From the NCBI GenBank assembly GCA_949747515.1, contig CATKFO010000051.1, positions 4,226-68,225 of the forward strand: a stretch of 64,000 nt of DNA, given 5' to 3'. Of this stretch, positions 29,910-30,804 are shown piece after piece. The notes under the pieces are model-generated. The model worked only from the letters and a program-made list of their open reading frames with translations. It ran no database searches and was not told the origin of the DNA. The translations under genes and the position numbers were made by a program. Source of the stretch: an uncultured Eubacteriales bacterium. GTDB taxonomy: Bacteria > Bacillota > Clostridia > Oscillospirales > CAG-272. The first letter of the stretch is position 1. Every line of letters starts with the position of its first letter.

Positions 29910-30527
29910 ATGACAAACACATACGGATATGCGCGGGTATCAAGCGCCGATCAAAACGAGGACAGGCAAATGATTGCGTTGTCAGCTTGTGAAATTCAAA
30001 AAAAGAATATCTACATGGATAAGCAGTCGGGTAAGGACTTTGATCGTCCGCAGTACAAAAAACTCACACGAAAGCTAAAAAGCGGCGATTTACTTTATAT
30101 TATGAGCATTGACCGCCTTGGGCGAAATTACGAGGAAATCCAAAAGCAGTGGCGCGTACTCACCAAGGATATCGGAGTCGATATATGCGTCCTCGATATG
30201 CCGCTCCTTGACACACGACGTGGAAAGGATCTTATGGGCACGTTCATTGCGGATCTAGCGCTGCAAATTCTTTCCTTTGTCGCTCAAAGCGAGCGAGAGA
30301 ATATAAAAAGGCGGCAGGCGGAAGGGATAGCCGCGGCGAAGGAAAAGGGGATTAAATTCGGGAGACCGGAATCAAAAGTCCCCGCGGACTTTGACAAAAT
30401 AATACGGCAATGGGAAGAAAGACAGATTCCCATTGCCGAAGTTATCAGATTATGTAATATGAGCGAAGCAACTTTTTACCGAAAATTACGGGATTTTAGG
30501 TTGTCCGATAAAAATAAACGGTATTAA
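29910..30527 (+). CDS. small serine recombinase (Hin/Pin-like DNA invertase/resolvase)
   Basis: YGYARVSS (catalytic Ser), [31 protein letters not shown]...G..FGRP, C-terminal HTH (SEATFYR); ATG 29910 after AAGGAGG. Confidence 0.93.
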
Positions 30528-30546
30528 AAAGTACACCTTTTGACAA
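30521..30546. repeat. hix-like recombination site, left
   Basis: GTATTAAAAAGT-AC-ACCTTTTGACAA; 12-2-12 imperfect palindrome overlapping the recombinase stop codon. Confidence 0.7.
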
Positions 30547-30562
30547 TGCTTGACTCATTATT

Positions 30563-30591
30563 AATATAGCATAAGCAAACGTAAAAATCAA
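30563..30591 (-). promoter_or_regulatory. sigma-A promoter inside the putative invertible segment, facing away from the surface-protein genes
   Basis: Minus strand TTGATT (30591-30586), 17 bp, TATATT (30568-30563) with extended -10 TG; AT-rich region upstream. Confidence 0.65.
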
Positions 30592-30645
30592 GAGAAAATA
30601 AAATATTTTATAATTTTTTATTGAAAATCGTTGTGAAATCACCCG

Positions 30646-30671
30646 CTATCAAAAAGCGTACTTTTTGACAG
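30646..30671. repeat. hix-like recombination site, right (inverted relative to left)
   Basis: CTATCAAAAAGC-GT-ACTTTTTGACAG; core GT is the reverse complement of the left core AC. Confidence 0.75.
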
Positions 30672-30804
30672 TAACTATTTTTGGAAGTGATAAGGGGGGA
30701 GGGGCATGATAGCAAGACAGAGGGATCATCCGCATTGCCCGCAATATTAATACTTATGCTTCAAAAATAGCGCTTGCGCTGTAAATTTTTAGGAGGAAAA
30801 TACC

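Follow-up and report, generated by a model that had tools for sequence, protein, structure and literature searches.

The window analysed here, a 64,000-nt stretch of contig CATKFO010000051.1 from an uncultured Eubacteriales bacterium, contains a candidate promoter-inversion switch, in which a gene for a small serine recombinase is followed by two short inverted sites, a promoter-bearing segment between these sites, and a two-gene operon encoding putative surface proteins. The recombinase gene (29910-30527, plus strand) follows a GGAGG ribosome-binding site, starts with the ATG at 29910, ends with the stop codon at 30525-30527, and encodes a protein of 205 amino acids (aa) that matches the Pfam Resolvase family over residues 5-147 (E-value 1.2e-26). 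Among proteins of known structure in the PDB the best matches are Sin/Bin3 (2r0q, 2.4e-31), gamma-delta resolvase (8.4e-21), Tn3 resolvase (6.6e-19) and Gin (3uj3, 6.1e-17). The alignments span residues 5-200; Sin, gamma-delta resolvase and Gin align over the full length, with end points at residues 193-200. The protein has the N-terminal catalytic domain and the C-terminal helix-turn-helix domain characteristic of small serine recombinases; its Ser11 aligns with the nucleophile position of gamma-delta resolvase, and the DRLGR motif is present.

The left site (30521-30546) reads GTATTAAAAAGT-AC-ACCTTTTGACAA, with the core AC at 30533-30534, and the right site (30646-30671) reads CTATCAAAAAGC-GT-ACTTTTTGACAG, with the core GT at 30658-30659. 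Each of them is an imperfect palindrome of 26 bp with a 12-2-12 organization, and their cores are reverse complements of each other. The arms agree at 10 of 12 positions in the right site and at 8 of 12 in the left site, which is the least symmetric. The sites are separated by a spacer of 99 bp; the segment enclosed by the cores (30535-30657) comprises about 123 bp, and the core-to-core distance is 125 bp, corresponding to about 12 helical turns. The left site overlaps the stop codon of the recombinase gene, which falls into the outer half-site and therefore outside the crossover at 30533-30534. An earlier note on this DNA had described exactly these sites and cores and had placed the stop codon beyond the crossover, and the sequence bears it out. 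When a degenerate 24-nt pattern derived from the four half-sites was scanned over the whole window, it matched twice, in both cases at these sites, while shuffled sequences lead one to expect 0.02 matches and none of 100 shuffles contained two or more. A 20-nt core pattern with at most one mismatch occurs at only four places in the 2.34-Mb genome, all of them beside two recombinase genes, and the reversed pattern used as a control gave no match. The earlier note had also warned that simple inverted-repeat finders might miss the sites; a repeat search with seed 6 recovered the pair twice, once in a direct family (D1) and once in an inverted repeat of 34 nt (I1).

The second of the two recombinase genes lies on another contig of the same genome (C69; L002:1502-2277). 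It encodes a protein 80% identical to the one in the window and shows the same layout, with cores AG/CT located 139 bp apart and the best promoter again on the minus strand, followed by an ORF (open reading frame) of 85 aa and a gene for a zinc-ribbon/transmembrane protein. The genome carries two private invertase-plus-switch modules that differ in the crossover dinucleotide, and this difference (AC/GT versus AG/CT) should keep the two switches from recombining together. The 5' untranslated regions of both paralogous recombinase genes (29855-29895 in the window and L002:1450-1490) share a conserved stretch with a short inverted repeat, CTGTA ... TACAG, which may be an operator or an RNA element that governs expression of the invertase.

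Two predicted promoters of opposite polarity are found in the segment. The one that we regard as the main promoter is located on the minus strand (30563-30591), has the form TTGATT-17-TATATT with a TG upstream of the -10 element, and faces the recombinase gene, with the -10 element ending 16 nt from the left site. The other, termed here the mirror promoter, is located on the plus strand (30540-30567), has the form TTGACA-16-TAATAT, and points at the operon in the present state; the inner half of the left site serves as its -35 element, and its -10 element overlaps that of the main promoter on the opposite strand. The overall layout is that of an inverton: inverted sites flank a promoter, and the downstream operon reads away from them, starting 133 nt past the right site.

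To place this arrangement in a broader context, we used the recombinase protein as a query. Among species-representative genomes at least 583 relatives were confirmed, of which the best 80 (65-87% identity) were used; a metagenome collection yielded 571 confirmed relatives, none of them above 79% identity, and again the best 80 entered the comparison. Together with the window and its paralogue on contig C69, the compared set comprises 162 loci. The hosts of the best 80 genome relatives include Oscillospiraceae, Acutalibacteraceae, Lachnospiraceae, Ruminococcus, Merdibacter and others. One member (L077) is located on a contig of a metagenome-assembled genome (MAG) labelled Bacteroides, while every other named host belongs to Bacillota, which suggests either a cross-phylum transfer or mis-binning.

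Sites were scored as 12-2-12 sequences within 700 nt after the recombinase gene, with at least 16 of 22 matches to the consensus half-site. A pair of such sites, 90-320 bp apart and just 3' of the recombinase stop codon, was found in 132 of the 162 loci; the 30 loci without a pair at this threshold include 12 with less than 400 bp of downstream sequence. The cores are reverse-complementary in 129 of the 132 pairs (GT/AC in 76, AC/GT in 42, AG/CT in five, and CT/AG, AA/TT and TT/AA in two each). Two further pairs have identical palindromic cores (GC/GC in L004 and AT/AT in L068), one has a different combination (GT/AA in L010), and none has cores in direct orientation. The core differs between loci, but the two sites of a locus change in step, as exchange by a 2-bp staggered cut at inverted sites requires. 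One of the two loci with palindromic cores (L004:1929-2089 and L068:3609-3771) encodes the closest relative of the window's enzyme among the best 80 (87% identity). A palindromic core carries no orientation information, therefore deletion should be chemically possible in L004 and L068 besides inversion. The only pair that breaks the reverse-complement rule belongs to a locus with three sites (L010:688-1000, cores GT, AA and GT), which may be a rearranged or a double switch.

For 100 distinct loci the orientation of the first downstream ORF of at least 120 aa could be evaluated (another ten were too short): in 94 of them the ORF points away from the switch and in six toward it, and the median gap is about 47 nt. 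We also carried out a Pfam scan of 54 downstream proteins, one per locus, which remained from 62 loci with a downstream ORF after near-duplicates and short flanks had been dropped. It revealed BspA-type leucine-rich repeat (LRR) proteins (seven), pilin or immunoglobulin-like adhesins (three), a dockerin/cohesin protein (one), glycosyltransferases (two), polysaccharide-modifying enzymes (four, namely a deacetylase, an acyltransferase, an epimerase and a GH16 enzyme), AMP-binding enzymes (three), TnpB-like proteins (three), as well as a kinase with LRR repeats, a helicase, an ABC exporter and others, while 19 proteins matched no Pfam family. Judged by these domains, the predicted cargo is the customary set of phase variation, often related to the surface or envelope, with some surprises. 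In three loci (L038:3843-5276, L046:3846-5312 and L055:3752-5245) the switch precedes a TnpB/Cas12f-like gene with the Pfam Cas12f1-like TNB domain, which would mean a phase-variable transposon-associated nuclease.

Direct evidence for inversion comes from relatives that were sequenced in both orientations. In an isolate genome (L037) and a long-read MAG (L049) the 300-nt flanks are 100% identical on both sides, while the inner 143 nt are 100% identical only as the reverse complement (55.7% in the forward direction), and the exchange of the inner half-sites coincides exactly with the cores. Grouping of all switches at 90% identity or more gave eight clusters of the same element from different assemblies, and three of these contain both orientations (4 versus 6, 3 versus 2, and 2 versus 1 members); the largest cluster, with 13 members, is uniform. 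More diverged pairs are likewise opposite (L006/L010, L032/L033, L032/L060 and L038/L046). The isolate record of L037 is assigned to Lachnospiraceae and the MAG of L049, which has the inverted copy, is labelled Anaerovoracaceae, and the same switch is found on eight metagenome contigs (L103, L106, L108, L110, L113, L116, L118 and L122), which suggests either recent horizontal transfer of the module together with its adhesin cargo or a binning error. Contig ends were considered as a sign of mixed orientations and rejected as unspecific: of the 80 genome contigs, seven stop no more than 181 nt past the recombinase gene, but six start no more than 181 nt ahead of it.

The length of the segment falls into discrete classes. 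In a set of 88 non-redundant switches, whose inner segments are less than 75% identical, the segment measures 117-190 bp in 86 cases, and the core-to-core distances pile up at 124-127, 134-139, 145-149, 155-159 and 165-169 bp, with a few at 174-176 and 190 bp; the class centres are 125, 136-137, 146-147, 157-159 and 168 bp. The Rayleigh statistic R has its maximum, 0.71, at a period of 10.5 bp, a value reached by none of 5000 null sets with a jitter of up to 5 bp. At 10.5 bp per turn the classes correspond to 12, 13, 14, 15 and 16 whole turns, and the window with its 125 bp belongs to the 12-turn class. The DNA between the sites is 70% A+T, and its A/T-tracts are phased at 10.5 bp across the family (z 17.9 against 200 composition shuffles and z 15.3 against 60 neighbour-preserving shuffles), while DNA of equal length taken downstream of the switch gives z -0.2. 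In the window the array occupies positions 30583-30640, upstream of the main -35 element, with tracts centred at about 30585.5, 30597, 30607, 30615.5, 30626 and 30637.5, i.e. in steps of about 10-11 bp; considered alone, it has an A-tract power of 2.68, which was reached by 44 of 1000 shuffles. This array is predicted to form intrinsically curved DNA, and we read the segment as a curved joint that would bring together two in-phase sites over a loop whose length is below the persistence length of DNA. The length classes could have arisen in part by gain and loss of A-tract units of 10-11 bp.

Taken together, these results lead us to consider it likely that the locus is a self-contained phase-variation module consisting of an invertase, its two sites and a promoter segment, whose present state is low or OFF for the operon. 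In the proposed mechanism the recombinase would bind as dimers to the two 26-bp sites directly 3' of its own gene, cut at the cores, and invert the segment between them. In the assembled state, transcription from the main promoter would leave the segment via the left site and enter the recombinase gene in the antisense direction; inversion would redirect it across the right site and the 133-nt leader to the two genes of the surface operon. Because the main promoter reads away from the operon, the present state would be low or OFF. Synapsis is probably geometry-dependent, since a normal DNA loop is much longer than this segment; it would probably rely on the whole-turn spacing of the sites (about 12 turns) and on A-tract curvature, and probably not on a Fis-bound enhancer as in Hin. 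We infer that the copy in the window still flips, that of the two promoters it is the main one that is effective, that the curvature has a role in synapsis, and that feedback of antisense transcription on the invertase shifts the switch toward OFF. The core of the earlier note, i.e. a serine invertase with a short invertible promoter that at present is directed away from the operon (30805-34747), is strongly supported by the comparison of the 162 loci, namely by the covariation of the cores, by the relatives found in two orientations, by the fixed position of the promoter and by the co-oriented downstream gene.

Several points weigh against this reading, and some of them give rise to alternative explanations. 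One of them concerns the mirror promoter, which the earlier note had named beforehand as a possible refutation and which is indeed present: in the same scan it scores 10/12, as compared to 9/12 for the main promoter, so the operon could already be expressed from it in the present state. On this basis one may argue that the switch is real but its present orientation is not OFF, i.e. that the mirror promoter drives the operon, and inversion either changes only the level of expression or acts with reversed polarity. A counterpart scoring at least 9/12 exists in 63 of the 94 family members (out of 117 distinct switches) in which the strand of the conserved promoter could be called clearly. The mirror promoter, however, arises automatically, because the half-site contains TTGAYA, the main -10 element sits 15-18 nt away from it, and a reversed TATAAT resembles a -10 element; given that its -35 element is constrained by the recombination site, it would need no selection to exist, yet it may function. 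The main promoter, in contrast, is conserved independently, with the family form TTG-17-TAnAAT: among the 94 switches the -35 element begins with TTG in 89, the spacer is 17 nt long in 86, the -10 element is TATAAT or TAAAAT in 65, and the TG extension is present in 44. Its -10 element ends 15-18 nt from the nearer site in 87 of the 94, a geometry that the 16 nt of the window fit. The minus-strand promoter of the earlier note was also recovered by the scan. The conserved promoter faces the recombinase gene in 72 of these switches and the downstream gene in 22, and the window represents the majority state. Moreover, any transcript from the mirror promoter has to pass through about 100 nt of the segment and past a recombinase-bound site. 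We therefore regard this alternative as unlikely, though less so than those discussed below. It does modify the claim of an OFF state: the main promoter faces away from the operon and would be transcribed antisense to the invertase gene, as the earlier note had stated, but since the mirror promoter aims at the operon, the present state is possibly "low" rather than "off". If the mirror promoter works, antisense transcription of the invertase gene may occur in both states.

According to another explanation, which we find improbable, the family inverts but the copy in the window is a frozen relic, with the promoter aimed permanently away from the operon. The weak symmetry of the left site, whose outer arm overlaps the end of the recombinase coding sequence, could mark a decaying site. 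In addition, the locus was seen in the reference orientation only. Twenty sequencing runs were found to contain it, none of them RNA and all represented by contigs, and four of them, from three studies and at a depth of about 4-10x, were examined (X2, X4, X5 and X6): contigs from X4 (30175-30797) and X5 (30318-31274) span the switch in the reference orientation, those from X2 and X6 break inside or at the switch, and neither an inverted copy nor a strand-changing joint of this locus was found in the contigs of these four runs, which at such depth drop rare variants and cannot reveal a minority orientation. Against decay stand the intact recombinase ORF, in which Ser11 and DRLGR align with Sin and gamma-delta resolvase, the exactly reverse-complementary cores, the spacing within the 12-turn class and the intact promoter geometry, and it is these features that suggest ongoing flipping of the window copy.

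That the sites form instead a resolvase res-type site (crossover plus accessory site) of a mobile element is very improbable: the best solved relative is indeed the resolvase Sin, and the distribution of the recombinase is patchy, with a homologue in ten of 40 related genomes, including five of 19 of the same genus, but copies found in nature are inverted relative to one another precisely from core to core, the cores covary as reverse complements and are never direct, and a conserved promoter lies inside the segment with a co-oriented gene outside it.

The remaining points to be set against the phase-variation module concern the comparative data and the role ascribed to curvature. The related switches are not independent samples, even though they were de-duplicated. 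The DNA of the window (30300-31400) has no orthologous locus in the 40 related genomes, where it gave short matches in two only. Phased A-tracts upstream of a -35 element can also activate promoters; as those found here may stimulate the promoter, their phasing is no proof of a role in synapsis. Finally, HU-assisted looping was considered and is without support: the HU family (PF00216) was not found in this 94%-complete genome, as compared to matches in nine of 14 control genomes, although its absence is unproven. The lack of HU would be unusual for a bacterium, and a gap in the assembly or a miss by the first filter of the search is possible.

Upstream of the module, an intrinsic terminator (29767-29802, plus strand) with 16-nt arms that are 94% complementary and a T-run closes an alpha-galactosidase-like gene (27467-29668) and insulates the module. 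Its predicted RNA fold has an energy of -18.5 kcal/mol (z -5.9), and none of 200 shuffles was as stable. We considered this palindrome as a third recombinase site and rejected it, because its resemblance to the sites is weak (70-74%) and it folds as a strong terminator hairpin. Downstream, a fixed leader of 133 nt (30672-30804, plus strand) connects the switch with the first cargo gene and contains a purine-rich stretch, a 14-codon ORF and the ribosome-binding site of the cargo gene. A G-rich purine run (30694-30704) is located directly 5' of the 14-codon ORF (30706-30750), which may encode a leader peptide or be a product of chance. Comparison of the leader with Rfam gave nothing at the threshold (best match with E 0.98). 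The sites and a hairpin-like element 5' of the ribosome-binding site were also evaluated as structured RNA and rejected, with z values of -1.85, -0.65 and -0.82 against shuffles and no Rfam family.

The operon itself comprises two genes on the plus strand. The first (30805-32994) encodes a protein of 729 aa with a hydrophobic N-terminus, Cys-rich repeats and a C-terminal dockerin (Pfam Dockerin_1, 7.7e-07), and the second (33011-34747) encodes a protein of 578 aa with a hydrophobic N-terminus, a cohesin domain (Pfam Cohesin, 7e-07), Cys-rich repeats and SLH repeats (Pfam SLH, 1.1e-24). The N-termini of both proteins, judged by eye, look like signal peptides, and together the two proteins look like a small wall-anchored cohesin-dockerin surface complex. 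The switch predicts that this complex is phase-variable in a mouse-gut commensal, and for many other species the family leads one to expect phase variation of adhesins and of enzymes that modify the envelope.

Together with its relatives, the locus represents a compact serine-invertase switch, encoded in cis and present in hundreds of gut Clostridia, with clear and testable design rules, namely a 12-2-12 site, a covarying core, whole-turn spacing, phased A-tracts and a promoter located 15-18 nt from the site. The spacing rule bears on the old question of how serine invertases achieve synapsis without an enhancer, and the modules are possibly useful as small orthogonal genetic switches for Gram-positive bacteria. 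Tentatively, and with less than even confidence, we extend this to the proposal that gut Clostridia possess a large undescribed class of enhancer-independent serine-invertase cassettes, in which A-tract-curved DNA of exactly 12-16 turns replaces the Fis/HU invertasome, the 2-bp core (AC, AG, AA, GC and others) makes co-resident cassettes orthogonal, and antisense feedback biases the switch toward OFF. If this is true, such cassettes would be portable one-gene switches of about 0.8 kb, placed by evolution before genes for adhesins, for enzymes that modify glycans and even for TnpB-like nucleases.

Invertible promoters have been studied extensively in Bacteroides and Enterobacteria. For gut Clostridia, the literature searched, as far as its accessible parts go, treats them mainly in read-based catalogues. 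The accessible parts of the inverton papers (PMC11892184, PMC11602134, PMC5903667, PMC12823448 and bioRxiv 10.64898/2026.10.01.755998) describe neither this recombinase and site family nor the spacing rule. The corresponding part of PMC11892184 reports the Clostridia-rich inverton groups 139 (linked to tyrosine recombinases) and 125, and some members of the family may already be catalogued there, e.g. as an overlap with group 125.

Among the known systems, the Din invertases (Hin, Gin, Cin and Pin) resemble the locus in combining a small serine recombinase with 26-bp 12-2-12 sites that have inverted 2-bp cores, and Hin, too, turns a promoter. According to Table 3 of PMC3241671, hixL and hixR have the 12-2-12 organization with the half-site GGTTTTTGATAA. 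The half-sites found here share T-TCAAAA with the hix half-site as given in the consulted part of that paper (TTATCAAAAACC), and the left arm of the right site agrees with the reverse complement of the hix half from the same table at 10 of 12 positions, as the earlier note had claimed. The core-adjacent positions, on the other hand, are GT/AC here and CC/GG in hix. Hin, as described in the available part of PMC3798978, inverts about 1 kb that includes its own gene and needs a Fis-bound enhancer, HU and supercoiling, whereas here the recombinase gene lies outside the segment, and the segment is too short for a looped enhancer. A Fis-type HTH_8 domain was not found in the 94%-complete genome, while control genomes were matched, although this leaves its absence unproven. 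Gin is also a weaker match to the recombinase sequence than Sin or gamma-delta resolvase. The description "Hin-like" used in the earlier note therefore suits the sites, with their 12-2-12 organization and TCAAAA half-site, but not the enzyme.

Sin (Tn552/pI9789) provides the best match of solved structure over the whole length of the protein, including the DNA-binding domain, and comes from the same host phylum. Sin resolves directly repeated res sites with the accessory site II and an HU-bent spacer. The locus differs from it in possessing two single palindromic sites in inverted orientation, in the natural inversion seen in relatives, and in that no accessory site was found here.

Further parallels are provided by two systems covered in the consulted part of PMC5903667. 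In Clostridioides difficile, the flagellar and cwpV switches are short invertible regulatory segments upstream of surface genes, i.e. the same arrangement in Clostridia, but RecV is a tyrosine recombinase encoded elsewhere, and its sites are plain inverted repeats rather than 12-2-12 sequences with a 2-bp core. In Bacteroides, the serine recombinase Mpi inverts promoter segments, shorter than about 200 bp, that precede genes for surface structures, as proposed for the locus in the window; Mpi, however, acts in trans on many scattered promoters, while here each recombinase gene adjoins its own single pair of sites and the genome contains no further ones, and the NCBIfam Mpi model NF009949 gives the recombinase a score of 38.2 bits, compared to a cut-off of 272. 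By the tests run here, the recombinase thus falls outside the Din, Mpi and Sin families, yet together with its sites it appears to work like an invertible-promoter switch of the Hin/Mpi type.

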